From a virus (lineage: Duplodnaviria > Heunggongvirae > Uroviricota > Caudoviricetes), in the IMG/VR virus record IMGVR_UViG_2698536580_000004, positions 1-26,180 of that record: a stretch of DNA of 26,180 nucleotides; one strand, 5' to 3'. Positions 1 through 24,477 of the stretch are shown here, one piece after another. Both the position numbers and the translations under genes were made by a program. A model generated the notes under the pieces. That model was not told the origin of the DNA. It saw nothing but the letters and a program-made list of their open reading frames with translations, and ran no database searches. The stretch's first letter is position 1. Each line of letters begins with the position of its first letter.

Positions 1-873
1 TCAGTCAGATAATCTGGGGCGAAGTGAGCATATGTCATTGTTTGCTCGATTGTTGTATGACCCAAAATACGCTGTAGCGTGATGATATTCCCTCCGTTGA
101 TCATGAAATGTGTTGCGAAGGTATGGCGTAAAACATGCAGTATCGAACAATTTCCCCGATTTGCGTGTAAGGATGTAGTCCGCGATTTCCTTCGATATCG
201 GAACAGTACGAGCTGGGCCGGTTTTGGTCTTAACAAAGGTCACACGGTTACTTATCACGTTTTCAGCTTTAAGATTACTGGCTTCACCCCATCGTGCTCC
301 TGTATTCAGGCAAAGAACGACAACTCTGCGATCATCCCCTGTAAGGGCATTCAGCAAATGGTGGATCTCTTCTTCGGACAGAAAGGACATTTCTGTGTTT
401 TCCAGACGTAACTTCTTCACGGCGCGAAACGGGTTTTCGTGATGAAATTCTTCCATATCTATCAGCAAACTGAACATGCTGGACATGGAACAGAAATCCC
501 TGTTTACCGTGCCAGCGGACACTCCACTATGAAGTCGTTCTGCACGATATTTCATCAGAAAGTTGCGGGTAAGCTCGTACACTCTGGGTTCGGCCATTTC
601 GCGGTTGATTTTTTCCAGACGCTTTTTATATGAGTCACCATAGTTGTGATTCTTTCCATGGTAGCTCCACCATAAAGAAATTAACTCGGATACAAGCCTC
701 CTGTCTGCGGGTTTGTCCTGCCATTCTTTATCGTGAAAGTTTGTCAGTACATATCGCTCGTATGCCTGTGCTTCCGCCTTTCTGTCAAATTTGCGTCGAA
801 TCCTTCTTCCTGTGGTTCCGCGCGGTCTAACGTCCACTTCAAAACGACCATCATCAAGCTTCTTAATCGACAT
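1..873 (-). CDS. int: tyrosine integrase (P2-like), 3' part disrupted; annotated frame stops at window position 1
   Basis: ORF-track frame encodes box-I-like NTGARWGEASNL and FVKTKTGPARTVPIS. Start at ATG 873 (MSIKK) is preceded by GGAGGG 7 nt upstream; the track start at 900 is an alternative. The catalytic box II is in another frame (see findings). Confidence 0.7.
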   Translation of the reverse strand: MSIKKLDDGRFEVDVRPRGTTGRRIRRKFDRKAEAQAYERYVLTNFHDKEWQDKPADRRLVSELISLWWSYHGKNHNYGDSYKKRLEKINREMAEPRVYELTRNFLMKYRAERLHSGVSAGTVNRDFCSMSSMFSLLIDMEEFHHENPFRAVKKLRLENTEMSFLSEEEIHHLLNALTGDDRRVVVLCLNTGARWGEASNLKAENVISNRVTFVKTKTGPARTVPISKEIADYILTRKSGKLFDTACFTPYLRNTFHDQRREYHHATAYFGSYNNRANNDICSLRPRLSD

Positions 874-939
874 AGCGAAGCCCTCCGATGTATGAATCAT
901 TATGTAAATTTTGCGCTAACGCATAGAAAAACCAGATGT

Positions 940-1248
940 TTAGCCAGTTTTTCGGGGTGAACGGGATGATGTTGTGTTGTCGTGCCCATCAGGGGAGAGA
1001 GACGGGGATACCTGCCCCGCGCTCGGTGCTGTCTTATCTGTCATTAACCAGAGTGTGTATTTTTCGAATCGTGGGTGTTTTAGTATCACATCAATAATTG
1101 CTAGCCCTGCCTCTCTTTGGCCACTTTCATAGTTTTTAACCGTACTCAAAGCAATGCCAATCATCTCCGAGAAGGATGATTGCGTTAGCCCTTCAGCCTT
1201 CCTGATTTGTCGCAATTTCTGAGCATGAGTCCTTGACGAGGTATTCAT
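940..1248 (-). CDS. C: immunity repressor, P2 C-type (HTH)
   Basis: 102 aa; C-terminal half (KYTLWLMT...SPRKTG) and length resemble the P2 C repressor as I recall it; divergent from the cox-like gene. Confidence 0.7.
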   Translation of the reverse strand: MNTSSRTHAQKLRQIRKAEGLTQSSFSEMIGIALSTVKNYESGQREAGLAIIDVILKHPRFEKYTLWLMTDKTAPSAGQVSPSLSPDGHDNTTSSRSPRKTG

Positions 1249-1349
1249 GTGTAGACTATCCTTGCGTTAGGTCTTCCGCGGAAGACCAAAACAAACCCTA
1301 GAACGACTTAAAGCGCCCTAGGAACCCAAACTAACGGAGGATACCACAG
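1249..1349. promoter_or_regulatory. lysogeny/lytic switch region with divergent promoters and candidate operators
   Basis: 101-bp gap between divergent repressor and cox starts; perfect 18-bp palindrome GGTCTTCCGCGGAAGACC at 1270-1287; direct repeats CCCTAGAAC (1296-1304) and CCCTAGGAAC (1316-1325) 20 bp apart; GGAGG at 1336-1340 before cox ATG 1350. Confidence 0.55.
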
Positions 1350-1631
1350 ATGAAGGAACCAGCAGAAAAGGCGCTTTCAGAGTTGGTGACCCCTGAGCTT
1401 TTTGCCGAATATATAGGCAAAACGCCTGCTGCAATTCGCAAAATGGCCACGGCTGGAAAACTGCCGGTAATCCGCATGAAAGACCCTCTAAATCCATCAA
1501 AAAAAGGTGGGGAAATCTATATCCATCGGGGGGAATGGGATGCTTATGCCCTTCATTTGGCTCAAATTGCCCCGCCTGAATGGCATGACTGGAAGAACCG
1601 TTTATTCACGAAAGATAAAAGTGCTCGTTAG
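1350..1631 (+). CDS. cox: Cox-like excisionase/transcriptional regulator
   Basis: 93 aa; motif FAEYIGKTPAAIRKMATAGKLPVIRMKDP matches the P2 Cox pattern (...GKLPVI.M.DP); position divergent from the repressor. Confidence 0.7.
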   Translation: MKEPAEKALSELVTPELFAEYIGKTPAAIRKMATAGKLPVIRMKDPLNPSKKGGEIYIHRGEWDAYALHLAQIAPPEWHDWKNRLFTKDKSAR

Positions 1632-1657
1632 TAAACTAAATATTATTGGGGATTATC

Positions 1658-1993
1658 ATGAAGACTAAATACGCCACTCTTATTCGTAACCTGTTGCAGA
1701 GTTACCATGCTCAGGCAAACGCTATTGAAAAAGAAACGTTCTCTGTCCATAGCGATGGCTTGCAGTTAATGGAATTGAATATCCAGCTTGCGAAATGTCT
1801 TGAGGGAATTACTTCTACTGCCCGTTTTAATAACGACAGTGATGATTTTGAAGAGTTGCACAAGATTACGCTTATGGTGTTTGGTGGGAATATACCAACT
1901 GAAAATAAAATTTCCGGCCTTATGTCGCTTGCTACCACAGCGTTAAAAAGTAATAACTCGCATCTTAAATCTGTTGCAGCTTCCCAACGTTAA
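1658..1993 (+). CDS. hypothetical early protein
   Basis: ORF-track frame 1646-1993 begins at TTG; first ATG at 1658 (MKTKYAT) has a GGGGA-type SD a few nt upstream. No motif recognised. Confidence 0.5.
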   Translation: MKTKYATLIRNLLQSYHAQANAIEKETFSVHSDGLQLMELNIQLAKCLEGITSTARFNNDSDDFEELHKITLMVFGGNIPTENKISGLMSLATTALKSNNSHLKSVAASQR

Positions 1994-2002
1994 GGAGCCG
2001 AT

Positions 2003-2572
2003 ATGAAACATTTAATGATTGACCTTGAAACAATGGATAATAAACCGACTTCTGCGATTGCTTCTATCGGTGCTGTGTTCTTTGACCCTGAAACTGGCGA
2101 AATGGGTGAGCAGTTTTATCAACGTGTCAGCCTGGGCAGTTGTGTAGGCCACGGTCTCACTATGGGTTCAGAAACCGTATTATGGTGGATGCGTCAGGAT
2201 GCCGAAGCGCGTAGCGAGCTGCTTAATGATGATTGCCTGGACTTGCCTCTGGCTTTAGCGAATCTGGAAGCCTTTATTACTGAGCATTCTGACCCATCTA
2301 AAGTGCAGGTATGGGGGAATGGTGCGGCGTTCGACAATGTTATTTTACGTAATGCATCAGATAAATGCGGGTTTGCCGATCCACTTTGGTACTACTGGAA
2401 TGACCGTGATGTAAGAACGGTTGTTGAACTTTCAAAAACACTTGGGCTGAATGTTCGTAATATTATTAAGTTTGATGGTGTTAAACATCACGCTTTATAT
2501 GATGCCATTCATCAGGCTAAAGTTGTTTCTTATGTCTGGATGTACCTTGTAAAAATAGCTAGTGTGAAATGA
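2003..2572 (+). CDS. DEDDh-family 3'-5' exonuclease (DnaQ/RNase T-like fold)
   Basis: 189 aa; N-terminal MIDLETMD (Exo I, D-x-E), mid NGAAFD, C-terminal HHALYDA (H-x4-D) fit DEDDh exonuclease motifs; strong SD AAGGAG before the ATG. Confidence 0.7.
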   Translation: MKHLMIDLETMDNKPTSAIASIGAVFFDPETGEMGEQFYQRVSLGSCVGHGLTMGSETVLWWMRQDAEARSELLNDDCLDLPLALANLEAFITEHSDPSKVQVWGNGAAFDNVILRNASDKCGFADPLWYYWNDRDVRTVVELSKTLGLNVRNIIKFDGVKHHALYDAIHQAKVVSYVWMYLVKIASVK

Positions 2573-2793
2573 CGATGCTTACAGTGACCTCTCATGCAAG
2601 TGAAAGTGTCATAGCAAAGGCATTTTCTGTGCTGACGGAATATTACAGCGGCAAAAAAGTATATCAGGTTATAAAACCGCATCATTATTTTTCTGTGCAT
2701 GTCTCTTATCGCTGGCGATTATTGAGTAAAGATAGGGGGCGGCATTGGGAGTTAATGACGCATGAGCGATATAACAAACAATACCGAATATAG
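2569..2793 (+). CDS. hypothetical protein
   Basis: 74-aa ORF whose ATG overlaps the exonuclease stop (ATGA); no motif recognised. Confidence 0.4.
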   Translation: MTMLTVTSHASESVIAKAFSVLTEYYSGKKVYQVIKPHHYFSVHVSYRWRLLSKDRGRHWELMTHERYNKQYRI

Positions 2794-2831
2794 TTTTTTG
2801 CCTTTTATACCTTTCTACATCTGGATTAATT

Positions 2832-5489
2832 ATGAATGCCACAATACAGCAGGACGTTGTGCGCCGGCTCGTTCAGGATTTTGAATTTAAAGAACGGGAT
2901 AAATATTTGCAGCAGGGCGTTTGCCCTAAATGCCATAAACGCGAATTATTCACCAGTATAGAAAAGCCCTGGATACTGAAGTGCGGCCGTGAAAACAACT
3001 GCGGCCATCAGGTCGTTGTCAAAGAGCAGTATCCTGAAATCTTTGAGGACTGGTCTAAGCGGTACCAGGACACCCCTGAAACCCCACATGCCGCTGCTGA
3101 GGCGTACCTGCGTGAGGCGCGGGGGCTGGATACTGAACCGCTAAAAGGTTGCTTTACTCAGGGCGCGTTCGTGAAGGATGGCATGGGGTCGGCAACGGTC
3201 AGATTTTCGCTGTCATGCGGTGCAACATGGGAGCGCATCATTGACCAGCCGCAGCGCTTTGGTAAGCAGAAAGCGAACATCAGAGGCAGCTATGTTGGTC
3301 ACTGGTGGGTTCCGCCTTCTGTGAACCTGCTGGAAGTGGATGAAATCTGGATCACTGAGGGAATCTTCAACGCACTGAGTCTGTGCCAGGCAGGGTTTCC
3401 TGCAGTTGCCACACTGAGCAGTAACAACTATCCGCTGGCCGCACTGGATTCGCTGGCCAAAGAACTGGGTGAAAAACCACGTCCACGTCTTGTATGGGCG
3501 TTTGACGGCGATAAAGCCGGCACAAAGCACACGCTGGCGTTCGCTGCCCGTAGTGATGCTGCAGGATGGAAAACCCGTGCCGCGCAGCCGGTGAAATCAT
3601 CGGCATCGCTGGACTGGAATGACCTGTTGTTACGTAACCGGTTCAGTAAGTCGGACATTAAAAATTATCGCTACTATGGCGATCTCCTTCTGGCAAAAAG
3701 CCCGACTGAGAAAGCCCTTCTTATGCATCAGCACAATGAATGGCACTCGTTTTATTTCGAACATGGTTCCCGCATGTACTGGTTTGAGCTGGATCTGGAC
3801 AGGTACATGCGAGCCTATGAGCGCATCACCAATACCGGTACCGAAGTGGTGATGGAGTGGGAGGCAAAAGAACGGGCGGTTAAAGAGTCAGGCGGTGTGA
3901 CCGAAATTGCCAACTGCTGGCTGACGCCGCTTTATTTCCAGCGGTCTGAACCTACAGACGAGTCCTGGTATTACGTGAAGGTCAGTATGCCGAACCGGCC
4001 AGCCGTGAAAGATACTTTTACGGCTAATCAGCTCACCAGTTCCGCCGAGTTCAAAAAGCGTCTTCTGCATATCGCCAAGGGGGCGGTGTATACCGGCAGT
4101 ACCAAACAGCTGGATAAGTTCATCCAGATGCGCCTCCCTGAAATCAAAGAAGTTAAGACGCAGAATTTCATTGGATACAACAAAGATTATGCCGCCTGGC
4201 TATTTAACCGTGTGGCCGTGTGTGATGGCCGGCTGTATGAGATGAACGACGAGGATTATTTCGAAATCAACAGCGCCAGCGTTAAGAGCCTGAGCCTCAC
4301 GCCGGCGCTGGATCTGAATCCGAAGCTGAACGAATTCACCACGGGCTGGGTTGACGATATCTGGACAGCGTTTGGTGAAAAAGGGTATGTGGCGCTGGCG
4401 TTCTGGCTGGGGTCGCTGTTCGCTGAGCAAATCCGGGAGCGTGACAAGTCATTTCCGTTTCTGGAAATCGTGGGCGAGCCGGGGACAGGTAAATCCACGC
4501 TGATAGAATTTCTCTGGAAGCTCGCCGGCCGTGAGGAATACGAAGGGTTTGATCCTTCTAAATCAACAGCCGCAGCGCGTGGACGCAACTTTGCCCAGGT
4601 TGGCAACCTTCCGGTTGTGCTGATTGAGGGCGACCGCACCACGGATAACGCTAAACAACGCGCTTTTGACTGGGACGAGCTGAAATCACTGTATAACGGT
4701 CGTGCCTCCCGTGCCGTGGGTATCAAATCGAACAATAACGAGACGTATGAGCCGCCATTCAGGGGAAGCATTGTGATAGCGCAAAATGCCGACACAGACG
4801 GCAGCAAGGCCTTTCTGGAGCGTATCATCCACATCTATACCGACAAGCGCGGCCAGTCCATTCAGACCCGCTACGCCGCCGAACGGCTTGAACAGATACC
4901 CGTTAGTCAGGTATCCGGGTTCACACTGCTGGCCACCATGCGTGAAAAAGAAATCATGAAGGTGTTCGGTCAGGGCTACGAACGCGCCCGTAGTGAGCTG
5001 GAGTCCAATACCAGTATTCGCCATATTCGTATCGCCAAAAACCACGCGCAACTGGTTGGTCTGCTGGATGCGCTGGCGTTGGTTGTACCAGTACCGATGG
5101 AACGTATTGAGAAGACCCGCGATGCAATTACCGCGCTGGCCGTGGAACGGTGTCAGGCGCTTAAAAAGGATCACCCTCTGGTGCAGGAATTCTGGGAGCT
5201 GTTTGATTACCTGGATGAACTTGCACCTTATGGCATCAATCATTCATCAGATGAAAATGAAATCGCGGTTAACTTCAATCACATGGAAGAGGTAGCCGCA
5301 GCACACCGGCAGCGTATTCCGTTCACATTAACGGAAATTAAAAAGCTGCTTAAAAACGGTAATGAACGGCGGTTCATCAGACAAAGTACCACGCGCAGCG
5401 CGGTAAGTGAGCGCCATAATCGTGGTAAAGGGGATATGCAACGGATGCCGGAAACATTCCGCTGCTGGATATTTAATAGAGAAAAGTAG
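2832..5489 (+). CDS. replication primase-helicase (zinc ribbon + TOPRIM + P-loop NTPase; P4 alpha-like architecture)
   Basis: 885 aa. N-terminal CPKCHKRE...LKCGRENNCGH zinc ribbon; TOPRIM-like WITEG (Glu) and WAFDGDKAG (DxD); Walker A GEPGTGKST followed by VVLIEGD. Confidence 0.75.
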   Translation: MNATIQQDVVRRLVQDFEFKERDKYLQQGVCPKCHKRELFTSIEKPWILKCGRENNCGHQVVVKEQYPEIFEDWSKRYQDTPETPHAAAEAYLREARGLDTEPLKGCFTQGAFVKDGMGSATVRFSLSCGATWERIIDQPQRFGKQKANIRGSYVGHWWVPPSVNLLEVDEIWITEGIFNALSLCQAGFPAVATLSSNNYPLAALDSLAKELGEKPRPRLVWAFDGDKAGTKHTLAFAARSDAAGWKTRAAQPVKSSASLDWNDLLLRNRFSKSDIKNYRYYGDLLLAKSPTEKALLMHQHNEWHSFYFEHGSRMYWFELDLDRYMRAYERITNTGTEVVMEWEAKERAVKESGGVTEIANCWLTPLYFQRSEPTDESWYYVKVSMPNRPAVKDTFTANQLTSSAEFKKRLLHIAKGAVYTGSTKQLDKFIQMRLPEIKEVKTQNFIGYNKDYAAWLFNRVAVCDGRLYEMNDEDYFEINSASVKSLSLTPALDLNPKLNEFTTGWVDDIWTAFGEKGYVALAFWLGSLFAEQIRERDKSFPFLEIVGEPGTGKSTLIEFLWKLAGREEYEGFDPSKSTAAARGRNFAQVGNLPVVLIEGDRTTDNAKQRAFDWDELKSLYNGRASRAVGIKSNNNETYEPPFRGSIVIAQNADTDGSKAFLERIIHIYTDKRGQSIQTRYAAERLEQIPVSQVSGFTLLATMREKEIMKVFGQGYERARSELESNTSIRHIRIAKNHAQLVGLLDALALVVPVPMERIEKTRDAITALAVERCQALKKDHPLVQEFWELFDYLDELAPYGINHSSDENEIAVNFNHMEEVAAAHRQRIPFTLTEIKKLLKNGNERRFIRQSTTRSAVSERHNRGKGDMQRMPETFRCWIFNREK

Positions 5490-5520: not shown

Positions 5521-5778
5521 ATGTCGGTAATGCAGTTAAAACTCGTCTGCTTGAAAAAAGTACCTGAAGGAGCGGAAGTATTTGAGGGATTCGAGACGGG
5601 GTGGGATAACTCTGTATTTTTTCTTTCTAGTGGTCGTATTCATGTAAATATGCGCTATAAGATGGCATTCAGGGCGAAAAAGAAAAATGGTGACATGGCA
5701 AAGAACCTTACTCATCTGGAGTGCAGTGTTGCGATGGCATATTGCCCGTTTTGTGGTGAAAAAGAGAACGCCTTATGA
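5521..5778 (+). CDS. hypothetical small protein (coding status uncertain)
   Basis: 85-aa ORF in the AT-rich segment after the primase gene; no SD at its ATG; contains a T-rich low-complexity stretch; C-terminal CPFCGE. May instead be non-coding (possible cos region). Confidence 0.3.
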   Translation: MSVMQLKLVCLKKVPEGAEVFEGFETGWDNSVFFLSSGRIHVNMRYKMAFRAKKKNGDMAKNLTHLECSVAMAYCPFCGEKENAL

Positions 5779-6026
5779 AACAGGATTATTATTCGTATGA
5801 GGAATTGCTGATGGGGATGTTTAATATCGGTGATGAACTTTATGAAACGACTGATTTTGATGAACTGACGATGGAACATTTTGAAGTCAGTTTTGAGCAG
5901 TTTGCTAATATTGTCGATGCCTTATTGCCATTTACAGCTTTGGTTTGCTCTCCTTTAAGTGGAAGAAATTATCACGCATTTCTTAAAGATGGCATTGCCT
6001 TTATTAAGACTGAGGCCAGTGTGTAA
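5775..6026 (+). CDS. hypothetical small acidic protein
   Basis: 83-aa ORF, ATG overlaps the stop of the upstream ORF (ATGA); followed immediately by a terminator hairpin. Confidence 0.4.
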   Translation: MKQDYYSYEELLMGMFNIGDELYETTDFDELTMEHFEVSFEQFANIVDALLPFTALVCSPLSGRNYHAFLKDGIAFIKTEASV

Positions 6027-6055: not shown

Positions 6056-6384
6056 TAAGCAGCTGCTGTGCCGTCCTGACTTAAAAACTTGAGCATCAGC
6101 TGTTTTTGCTGCATATCAAGGCTGTTGCAGATAGTGGCGATCAACGCATCGCAGGATTTGGCGCTGGGGCTGATGGTATGTGAGAATGTCATATTCATCA
6201 CAAAAGTGTGACCACATTCAACATCGGTACACGCACAATATAAATCCGACAGTTCCTTGTGTTTTCGGGCTGTTTTTTTGATAACAGCCCTTGCCTCACA
6301 TACCGGACAGTAAACCTTCATTACCCGCATATCCATCGCTCCGGAAGTTGGAAAACGATGATATTTTAGCCTTTTTGCGGACAT
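6055..6384 (-). CDS. ogr: Ogr/Delta-like zinc-finger late-gene transcriptional activator (extended)
   Basis: CPVC-x20-CAC-x4-C with HTF after the last Cys, matching the P2 Ogr four-Cys arrangement; 109 aa as called, possible internal starts (MDMRV or MKVY); first ATG overlaps the portal stop (TAATG). Confidence 0.65.
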   Translation of the reverse strand: MSAKRLKYHRFPTSGAMDMRVMKVYCPVCEARAVIKKTARKHKELSDLYCACTDVECGHTFVMNMTFSHTISPSAKSCDALIATICNSLDMQQKQLMLKFLSQDGTAAA

Positions 6385-23245: not shown

Positions 23246-23960
23246 AGCACGTCTGGCCTTCACGGATTCTGTTGCTGCGCTGAACTGTTCTATCGTCCCT
23301 GCGCATCCGTGGATTTATGGGCTGGGACAGCAGACAGCGAACGGGGCATATCTCAGCCCGGTTAATGCTGTTCGCTATCTTGCTGAACGCCTGGCCGGAA
23401 CAGGGGGGAATGCGGACATGGTGATTATGATGGTCACCGGACAGACACAGGATAACTTCATGGCAAGCCTGAATAACCTGGTCGGGATTTTCCCCGCCCC
23501 GGCATTCACGCAGGTCAAACGGCTTGCGCAATCCGCCGCAGCGCTGGCTATTGAAAAGATGCAGATCCCTGCGAAAACCGCCGCTGCGTTACCTGCGCCC
23601 ATTCCGTTGTCTGTACCAACCAGCAGGGCAGCTTTATCTGCTGCGGCAATCAGCCAGGCACAAAAGGCGGCGGGTGCCGGGTTTGATATCGAAGGGCTGA
23701 AAAAACAGCTGGGCGAGTTCACGCAGCTGCGTGACCAGCTTATCAGTGATGTGGCCAGCGGACTGAATGATTTACAGGGGAAAAGTGCCAGAGCGTGGGT
23801 TTTTACTGCCAGCGGAGACACCGGCACCACGTTACTGGAACTGATGAAGGACATTCCGCAGCAGTCTGCCGTTTACACCGCTGCCATGATGCTGGTTGGC
23901 GATAATCTTGATGGAATAAAGGGAATGATTCATGACTGCGATCCCGACATTGGCGCTTAA
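23235..23960 (+). CDS. hypothetical Ala-rich protein of unknown function
   Basis: Track frame starts at 23199; ATG at 23235 (MWREARL) has GGAGG 9 nt upstream and overlaps the Tfa 3' end; ~241 aa; no motif recognised. Confidence 0.45.
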   Translation: MWREARLAFTDSVAALNCSIVPAHPWIYGLGQQTANGAYLSPVNAVRYLAERLAGTGGNADMVIMMVTGQTQDNFMASLNNLVGIFPAPAFTQVKRLAQSAAALAIEKMQIPAKTAAALPAPIPLSVPTSRAALSAAAISQAQKAAGAGFDIEGLKKQLGEFTQLRDQLISDVASGLNDLQGKSARAWVFTASGDTGTTLLELMKDIPQQSAVYTAAMMLVGDNLDGIKGMIHDCDPDIGA

Positions 23961-24477
23961 TGGCGAGGCCATCCAGCTGAAAAACATGCGGGTGACTGTT
24001 TCACAGCAGTTTCAGGATAAAGATCAGTCCGGCCAGACCAGCGCCACAACAAAATCAGAGCAGGGAGCAAAGGGAAAGGAACTGCGGATCAGCGGTGAAA
24101 TACCTTTTAAACAGTCTGAAATACTGAAGCGTATTTTTGAGCTGGCCAGTGCTACCGATGCCAGTGGTAATCGTCAGAAGTACCGCGTGGCGCATGAAGT
24201 TGCCCGTGCTGTTAATTTTCGTGAAGCAACGTTCAGCGGGATGCTGGATGCACCCCAGCAGGACGGGAAAATGTCCTGGCTGGTGACATTCACACTGGCG
24301 GAACATATCAGCGTGCAGGAAAAGCGAGAAGCCAGGGCAACAGGTAAGACGACCGCAAAAAAACAGACTGCCGGTAGTGCGGGACAGTCCGGTGGCCAGT
24401 CTGCCGGAGAGGATGAAGAAAAACTGACGTGGTTTGAACGCAAGGTGCTGAAGCCCGTCAATGATGCTTTGGGTTAA
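23932..24477 (+). CDS. hypothetical protein of unknown function (Lys-rich centre, Gly/Ser/Gln-rich C-terminal stretch)
   Basis: 181-aa ORF overlapping the upstream ORF by 29 nt; its stop overlaps the ATG of the hub/spike gene; no motif recognised. Confidence 0.45.
   Translation: MTAIPTLALNGEAIQLKNMRVTVSQQFQDKDQSGQTSATTKSEQGAKGKELRISGEIPFKQSEILKRIFELASATDASGNRQKYRVAHEVARAVNFREATFSGMLDAPQQDGKMSWLVTFTLAEHISVQEKREARATGKTTAKKQTAGSAGQSGGQSAGEDEEKLTWFERKVLKPVNDALG

Follow-up and report, generated by a model that had tools for sequence, protein, structure and literature searches.

Introduction

The 3′-5′ exonuclease DexA of bacteriophage T4 degrades DNA, scavenges host DNA, and supports intron homing (Kang et al., PMC12153337). 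EcD, a short "bacterial" homologue of DexA, cleaves T4 DNA containing 5-hydroxymethylcytosine (5hmC) but not unmodified double-stranded DNA (dsDNA), and plasmid-borne EcD protects Escherichia coli against T4 (Kang et al., NAR 2025, PMC12153337). In this study, three small genes, ORF1, exo, and ORF3, are compared with these and other known systems. They lie on the plus strand at positions 1658–2793 of a 26,180-nt Caudoviricetes sequence (IMG/VR record IMGVR_UViG_2698536580_000004), and this whole stretch of DNA is called the window. Judged by its gene layout, the source element is an Evevirus-like prophage of the P2 family (Peduoviridae). An earlier note, made from the letters of the sequence alone, had described three co-oriented genes between cox and the replication gene; their coordinates, orientation, and lengths of 111, 189, and 74 amino acids (aa) were borne out.

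I favor, with moderate confidence, the view that the three genes are lytic-cycle accessory genes that act separately rather than the parts of a dedicated three-part system. The region is largely ordinary, in that all three genes belong to catalogued families and the exonuclease and the ParE-like protein have already been named by RefSeq. What is new beyond the annotation is the EcD-type prophage context, the degenerate alleles that are under selection, and the spread of an antitoxin-less protein family, PF24732, in the early operons of phages and of integrative and conjugative elements (ICEs). The literature searched on Rv2179c and phages, PF16473, ParE-like proteins in P2-like phages, and DEDDh anti-defense nucleases held no functional study of these prophage genes.

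The Exonuclease Gene

The exo gene (2003–2572, plus strand) encodes a 189-aa protein, Exo, of the DexA/Rv2179c-type DEDDh 3′-5′ exonuclease family. It matches Pfam PF16473 (Rv2179c-like 3′-5′ exoribonuclease domain) with 229.8 bits (cut-off, 27; E = 2.3e-68), and the match runs end to end, with residues 2–179 on positions 1–177 of the 177-position model. The protein also matches phrog_255 "exonuclease" (4e-72). In the alignment with DexA, the Exo I motif D-x-E is found as D7-L-E9 in MIDLETM (IDFETM in DexA), the acidic residue of Exo II as D111 in NGAAFD (GMSFD in DexA), and the H-x4-D of Exo III, which defines the "h" subtype, as H162-HALY-D167 (H186-x4-D191 in DexA). Thus, by its sequence, Exo is a DEDDh family member with the complete set of D7, E9, D111, H162, and D167. 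The DEDDh call of the earlier note, which had pointed to DLETMD (residues 7–12), NGAAFD (106–111), and HHALYDA (162–168), agrees with the full pentad, the end-to-end PF16473 match, and the homology to DexA. Among the solved structures, a sequence search with Exo matched only 8KEL and 8KEN (1.5e-10), the entries for T4 DexA and for its mutant S87A/D90A. The family is very common; clustered at 90% identity, its homologues form over 1,350 clusters, most of them from Enterobacterales, and 548 phage records carry a member. A Shine-Dalgarno sequence, AAGGAG, lies 5 nt upstream of the exo ATG.

Exo is likely to be catalytically competent. According to the mechanism of the superfamily, D7, E9, D111, and D167 would hold two Mg2+ ions and H162 would be the general base. 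Exo would remove nucleotides from free 3′ ends, and I infer from the analogy with T4 DexA and EcD that DNA is the most likely substrate. Its job would likely be to degrade the DNA of the host or of competing phages, or to trim ends in replication or recombination.

Where does EcD itself come from? The EcD gene was sought via the cloning primers listed in the supplement of Kang et al. The forward 17-mer found candidates, and the reverse-primer sequence and a gapped pattern gave no matches. The forward-primer search led to a 189-aa PF16473 protein on viral contigs, which starts with MIDTET, has A78, and is 37% identical to Exo of the window. Judged from the primers and A78, not from a deposited sequence, this protein is probably EcD. 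Its gene lies in a prophage with the order int, C, cox, ..., DUF4761, DUF4754, a 90-aa open reading frame (ORF), exo, a PF24732 ParE-like gene, and dam (L105, L110, L120, L121, L123, and L126; e.g., positions 6164–6991 of L126, minus strand), and this type of locus was found in 31 of 5,426 E. coli genomes. The short homologue with the best experimental record thus probably comes from a P2-like prophage, in which it fills the early-operon slot that Exo has in the window.

Exchange of the exo Gene and Its Degenerate Alleles

It was found that the exo gene has been exchanged between conserved flanks. In two relatives of the window, L001 (Escherichia phage ESSI2_ev239) and L005, the nucleotide identity to the window is 85–87% for ORF1 and 91–92% for ORF3 but drops to 57–62% for exo. 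Since only the identity of exo drops, the gene has been exchanged as a cassette. The last ~15 codons of exo (VSYVWMYLVKIASVK, window positions 2520–2572) are identical in the live allele of the window and the degenerate alleles of L001 and L005. Thus, the right-hand junction of the cassette falls within the 3′-terminal part of exo rather than in the spacer that follows it.

The alternative alleles keep Exo I. They have lost the aspartate of Exo II (NGAAFD to GCPSLHS), the H-x4-D of Exo III (KHHALYD to R-NAYNH), and W132. In the Exo-like version of Reipivirus, nearly all of the catalytic motifs are lost (DLI, KDAPEK, CYTLTD). I surveyed 76 loci with an Exo-like gene directly upstream of a ParE-like gene, collected via the ParE-like gene. 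The full DEDDh set was found in 21 of the 76 loci, the window included, and in one truncated copy, while degenerate Exo proteins were found in 15 Evevirus-type loci of several sub-lineages and in 39 Reipivirus-type loci; these loci are redundant, and the lineages weigh more than the counts. Degenerate alleles are found, for example, at positions 3496–4056 of L001, 3444–4004 of L005, 3444–4004 of L007, and 2914–3480 of L015, and in many of L027–L102.

The degenerate alleles are still full-length matches to PF16473 (92–176 bits). Their ratios of nonsynonymous to synonymous substitution rates (dN/dS, Nei-Gojobori) are 0.03–0.26, in the range of those of the live alleles (0.05–0.17). Thus, they are maintained proteins and not decaying pseudogenes. 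The selection on these alleles points to a nuclease-independent function of the exonuclease fold. The identity of ORF3 does not follow the type of the Exo allele; L005 has a dead Exo and an ORF3 with 93% identity, while L046 has a live Exo (97%) and an ORF3 with 77% identity.

The ParE-like Gene

ORF3 (2575–2793, plus strand, 72 aa) matches Pfam PF24732 "ParE-like toxin domain" with 60.5 bits (cut-off, 24.4) and phrog_1525, and RefSeq names it "ParE family toxin-like protein". Its AlphaFold model (pLDDT, predicted local distance difference test score, of 88.9) shows a single helix at the N-terminus, a sheet of four strands, and a short helix at the C-terminus, and the structural matches are almost all RelE-superfamily toxins (RelE/HigB/YoeB/ParE). 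The modeled ORF3 protein has the RelE/ParE fold, an N-terminal helix on an antiparallel sheet. The description of this protein as motif-less in the earlier note is therefore not tenable. The sequence of ORF3 matched no solved structure even at E ≤ 10, and PADLOC gave no match to it. An hhalign comparison with E. coli HigB aligned 12 C-terminal columns only (RHWELMTHERYN versus YIREVMTHKEYD), with a probability of 5%.

A signature, WRLLS(K/R)(D/N)-G--W-(L/V)(M/L)(T/S)HE-YN, is kept in the ORF3 homologues down to 33% identity, across temperate phages, phages with loci devoid of lysogeny genes, and ICEs; in ORF3 it reads WRLLSKD-G--W-LMTHE-YN. Nine divergent homologues score 58–73 bits on PF24732, and none of the homologues scores on the Pfam models of RelE, HigB, and ParE. 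The invariant residues R48, R50, H65, E66, and Y68 belong to the two final strands and the C-terminal helix. In RelE, YoeB, YafQ, and HigB, the catalytic residues of the RelE-type RNases lie on the last strands or the C-terminal helix. Because of this placement, I lean to an mRNA-interferase-like activity; by this analogy, targeting of mRNA or the ribosome would be more likely than gyrase poisoning. ORF3 is most likely a toxin-like host-takeover factor whose translation is coupled to the upstream gene.

The start codon of ORF3 deserves attention. The ATGA overlap of the last two genes, described in the earlier note, is present in the window, where an ATG at 2569 would give a product of 74 aa. 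However, this overlap is lineage-specific; among ~36 Evevirus-type relatives, it was found only in the window and in the near-identical L023 and L024. The remaining relatives read GTGAAA TAA nn ATG and have no upstream ATG, and the database homologues of ORF3 are 72 aa in length. Thus, the conserved start codon is the ATG at 2575, two bases past the stop codon of exo. ORF3 has no good Shine-Dalgarno sequence, and the spacing is tight enough for coupled translation. L023 (IMGVR_UViG_2922242011_000005), whose ORF3 and Exo are 100% and 99% identical to those of the window and which carries the window-type TGA stop codon and the ATGA overlap, is probably a near-twin of the source element.

It was also found that the ParE-like ORF of ESSI2_ev239 (L001 4059–4277; ~23854–24069 of NC_049392.1) is unannotated in both the RefSeq and the GenBank records. 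The records show a 259-bp "gap" there, flanked by the exonuclease and primase genes, although the ORF is 94% identical to ORF3 of the window.

Is ORF3 always associated with an exonuclease gene? I compared the neighborhoods of the PF24732 genes. The gene lies directly 3′ of an exonuclease or exonuclease-like gene in Evevirus-type, Reipivirus, and EcD-type prophages. It follows a Dam methylase gene in Irrigatiovirus SW3/SI7 and a DUF2732-like ORF in a third P2-like group. In a Serratia temperate phage and in Sortsnevirus and Murrayvirus phages, the latter with loci that show no lysogeny genes, it comes after unrelated hypothetical genes. In ICEs of Xenorhabdus and Pantoea, the gene lies between a DUF2857 gene and the gene of a 400-aa protein. 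The BisDC master activator of ICEclc-type elements has DUF2857, or BisC, as one of its subunits (PMC7423338). In the Xenorhabdus and Pantoea ICEs, the DUF2857 (BisC-like) gene overlaps at its end with the ParE-like gene (L008 3414–4246; L010 and L012 ~3345–4222). The same operon also holds a ParB-like (BisD-like) gene, and an AcaB-like regulator gene lies further downstream.

In nearly every setting, the PF24732 gene abuts or overlaps the upstream gene. Since the upstream gene varies, the tight junction seems to be a property of the translation of the small gene and not the mark of a specific partner. The upstream neighbors in all of the lineages inspected belong to no known antitoxin family, and the context argues against a classical toxin-antitoxin pair. 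Because the family is also found in phages without lysogeny genes, its role may lie in lytic development or element activation rather than in addiction or lysogen maintenance. The ParE-like gene was counted in 63 phage records, as opposed to the 548 with a PF16473 homologue. The idea of an obligate trio was not borne out, as the ParE-like gene occurs without an exonuclease gene in phages and ICEs and exo is swapped as a cassette. Rather, early operons of phages and activation operons of ICEs widely encode a minimal, antitoxin-less protein of the RelE/ParE fold, a candidate host-takeover factor.

The ORF1 Gene

ORF1 (1658–1993, plus strand, 111 aa) matches its own narrow family, phrog_7058, with an E-value of 1.6e-43, and phrog_2549 with 7.3e-11. 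It has no assignment in Pfam, NCBIfam, or PADLOC, and no match to Pfam DUF4754 was found at E ≤ 0.1. A search of 1.84 billion proteins gave only seven representatives. The ORF1 model is a four-helix bundle with a pLDDT of 79, whose structural neighbors are uninformative. Three further proteins fall into phrog_2549. They are a 125-aa protein at the matching position of Reipivirus, one of 90 aa from the third P2-like group, and, in the EcD-type prophage, the Pfam DUF4754 protein of 80 aa. An hhalign alignment of ORF1 with the last of these covers 69 columns (E = 2.9e-4; probability, 41%). ORF1 thus looks like a divergent and enlarged DUF4754-like protein, although the relationship is remote, and this family appears to be a recurring gene of early operons. 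In the favored reading, ORF1 would contribute a helical, DUF4754-like accessory protein to the early lytic operon. The earlier note had found no recognizable motif in this protein either, and the two PHROG matches and the remote DUF4754 likeness amend that statement.

The earlier note had also considered that the flanking ORFs might be known replication accessory proteins. ORF1 and ORF3 showed no similarity to P2 B, orf78–83, and orf91, or to cII, fil, dhr, DUF2732, DksA-like, DUF5405, and other early ORFs of phage 186, so this objection found no support among the P2 and 186 early genes.

The Early Operon and the Source Element

The three genes follow cox, the first gene of the early operon (1350–1631, plus strand), which encodes a Cox-family excisionase/repressor (PF10743 Phage_Cox, 7.8e-25; phrog_1831, 4.9e-41). 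The block is closed by a primase-helicase gene (2832–5489, plus strand), whose 885-aa product has a zinc ribbon, a Toprim domain, and a DUF5906 P-loop domain and matches phrog_1139 "DNA primase" over the full length (E = 0) and Toprim_3 (7.9e-11). Upstream of cox, the gene of a C-type immunity repressor with an HTH_3 domain lies on the minus strand (940–1248; PF01381, 1.4e-9; phrog_147, 2.9e-36), and the integrase gene (1–900, minus strand) stands at the start of the window.

A consensus scan found a promoter-like site, TTGACG-18-TATCCT, on the plus strand at 1233–1262 in the C/cox intergenic region. The annotated Pe of P2 lies at the corresponding place, and the C/Pe/cox arrangement is as in P2. 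The site is likely the early (Pe-type) promoter for cox, ORF1, exo, ORF3, and the primase gene. From 1631 to 2832, consensus matching on the plus strand gave no further promoter-like sequence and no terminator-like one. Thus, the three genes are most likely on the repressor-controlled early transcript. The C repressor would be expected to silence the early operon, including these genes, in the lysogen. It is proposed that ORF3 can do without an antitoxin, since in lysogens the operon is kept off by the C repressor.

Just past the promoter-like site, a near-perfect palindrome (TTAGGTCTTCCG/CGGAAGACCAAA) was found at 1267–1290 of the C/cox intergenic region; it is a candidate operator. An Rfam scan of the window gave zero matches, and a repeat scan of 900–3000 gave nothing meaningful within the three genes. 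The GC content is 0.40–0.44 over 1501–3000, compared with 0.50–0.60 for most structural genes, in line with the AT-richness seen in the earlier note.

The nearest sequenced phage is ESSI2_ev239, of the genus Evevirus, and a copy with 93% identity was found in 19 complete E. coli genomes. On these copies, the RefSeq labels are Cox family DNA-binding protein, hypothetical protein, 3′-5′ exonuclease, ParE family toxin-like protein, and toprim domain-containing protein. The order cox-ORF1-exo-ORF3-primase was also found in ESSI2_ev239, six species-representative genomes (Salmonella, Pseudocitrobacter, two Enterobacter, Ca. Erwinia, and Cedecea), and ~30 viral contigs. On the 3′ side of the primase-helicase gene lie two small AT-rich ORFs, the gene of an Ogr-type late activator, and the portal gene. 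The two ORFs (85 and 83 aa; 5521–6026) are located where the window is richest in AT (GC, 0.39), between the primase and Ogr-like genes, and P2 has its tin/old accessory locus at this position. Neither ORF matched a family. L001, L003, and L006 keep the 83-aa ORF (~86%) and gave no match to the 85-aa one.

Alternative Explanations

From the varying neighborhoods of ORF3 and the exchange of exo, I infer that the three genes function independently of one another. Some observations weigh against separate lytic accessory genes. The scan for promoters and terminators is a matter of consensus matching, and the three genes may be expressed in the lysogen. The RelE-type catalytic assignment of ORF3 derives from the modeled fold and the 12-column match to the C-terminus of HigB, with its probability of 5%. 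As many as 54 of the 76 Exo-like proteins are without the Exo II and Exo III residues and yet are under purifying selection, which suggests a catalysis-independent role for this slot. Lastly, an Exo or Exo-like gene directly precedes a ParE-like gene in no fewer than three divergent P2-like lineages, the Evevirus-type, Reipivirus, and EcD-type ones, whose Exo proteins are 28–37% identical, and such linkage exceeds the expectation from chance mosaicism.

The last two points would fit a two-gene module, in which the Exo fold is a partner, neutralizer, or modulator of the ParE-like protein, as in an atypical toxin-antitoxin-like or effector-chaperone pair, and catalysis is dispensable. Such a module would account for the purifying selection that maintains dead alleles in the exo slot. 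The Exo or Exo-like gene comes before the ParE-like gene with a spacing of 2–8 nt in the three lineages, so that the larger partner is first and the toxin fold second, as in type II toxin-antitoxin operons. The degenerate Exo proteins are full-length and under purifying selection as strong as that on the live alleles, and every one of them adjoins a downstream ParE-like gene, partly by construction since the loci were gathered via that gene. However, the ParE-like gene occurs without an Exo homologue in Irrigatiovirus, the third P2-like group, Sortsnevirus, Murrayvirus, and the ICEs, and the 548 phage records with a PF16473 homologue far exceed the 63 with a ParE-like gene. Moreover, live and dead Exo alleles are swapped while ORF3 stays 91–93% identical, without co-variation. 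I regard the module as unlikely. It is equally doubtful that the Exo fold is mainly a binding or regulatory partner of the PF24732 protein in P2-like early operons, with the window carrying a "live" version.

Alternatively, Exo might be a superinfection-exclusion nuclease of the prophage of the HREX type, which digests the 5hmC DNA of T-even phages, and the flanking genes would be unrelated to it. The cleavage of T4 DNA but not unmodified dsDNA by EcD and the plasmid-borne protection against T4 (PMC12153337) speak for this, as do the EcD-like protein in the same P2-like slot, followed by ParE-like and Dam genes in the 31 E. coli genomes, and the T-even and lambda exclusion genes tin and old of P2 itself. 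Exo keeps the equivalent of DexA W152 (W132) and, like EcD, is without D90 (L83 in Exo). Nevertheless, the identity of Exo to the EcD-like protein is 37% only, and the equivalent of D169, which is reported to be needed for 5hmC recognition, is G148 in a gapped loop of the alignment. In addition, exo lies inside a repressor-controlled operon without its own promoter-like site, whereas tin and old of P2 are separate and lysogenically expressed. Many relatives have dead alleles in the same slot, and the evidence for EcD comes from over-expression. A superinfection-exclusion role of Exo seems improbable.

An anti-defense role, which the earlier note had called possible but unsupported, is the least probable of these explanations and very unlikely. 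Exo would then degrade a host immune nucleic acid or signal, such as cyclic or linear oligonucleotides or the complementary DNA of retrons or defense-associated reverse transcriptases (DRTs), and ORF1 and ORF3 would be further counter-defense proteins. The three are indeed small, AT-rich, variable accessory genes within an early operon, the cassette-like exchange of exo is typical of arms-race genes, and the ParE-like family is also found in phages whose loci are without lysogeny genes. On the other hand, PADLOC gave a weak generic match of Exo to a CRISPR-associated DEDDh protein alone (3.2e-5), the homologue EcD is reported to defend against T4 (PMC12153337), and no anti-defense report on PF16473 or Rv2179c-like proteins was found in the literature searched. 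The dead alleles argue against a general enzymatic role against signals. The three proteins are not known to match any anti-defense family. Thus, separately acting accessory genes of the lytic cycle remain the favored explanation.

Comparison with Known Systems

In the P2 family, phage 186 has a DnaQ-like 3′-5′ exonuclease of the DEDD superfamily (NP_052286), described as "not essential", between the regulatory and replication genes of the early operon. However, NP_052286 belongs to the epsilon-like DEDD subfamily and not to PF16473, and it shows no significant sequence similarity to Exo (blastp E = 0.38). ORF1 can be compared with DUF4754 (PF15946) and phrog_2549; the DUF4754 protein is encoded upstream of exo in the EcD-type prophage, in the same position as ORF1, but is about 80 aa in length, while ORF1 has 111 aa with an insertion.

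ORF3 differs from the toxins RelE, HigB, YoeB, YafQ, and ParE in size and architecture; it has 72 aa and one N-terminal helix, while the toxins have ~85–105 aa and two helices. Unlike type II toxins, ORF3 has no cognate antitoxin, its upstream neighbor varies, and it forms its own Pfam family, PF24732. Furthermore, the family is encoded inside the early operons of phages and ICEs and not in an autoregulated two-gene operon.

T4 DexA and Exo belong to the same Pfam family, PF16473, and both are encoded by non-structural phage genes. The DEDDh residues and a WW..Q..EAR helix align between the two, and W152 of DexA corresponds to W132 of Exo (FW152NQRD versus YWNDRD). The sequence similarity is about E = 1e-10 only. 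DexA has 227 aa with extra loops, compared with 189 aa for Exo, and its tetramer contacts S87 and D90 are replaced by D80 and L83. The replacement of D169 by G148 is a weak call, as the alignment passes through a gapped loop there. DexA belongs to a virulent T-even phage with modified DNA, while Exo belongs to the early operon of a temperate P2-like phage.

EcD and Exo are both short PF16473 proteins of 189 aa without the D90 residue of DexA, consistent with a dimer-only state, and a PF24732 ParE-like gene follows both exo and the gene of the best EcD candidate. The EcD-type locus differs in having DUF4761, DUF4754, and Dam genes and another replication gene. Kang et al. treat EcD as a bacterial gene, while the context found here is a prophage. 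If EcD is an early gene of a P2-like prophage, the reading of that defense changes, as to when the nuclease is expressed and for whose benefit.

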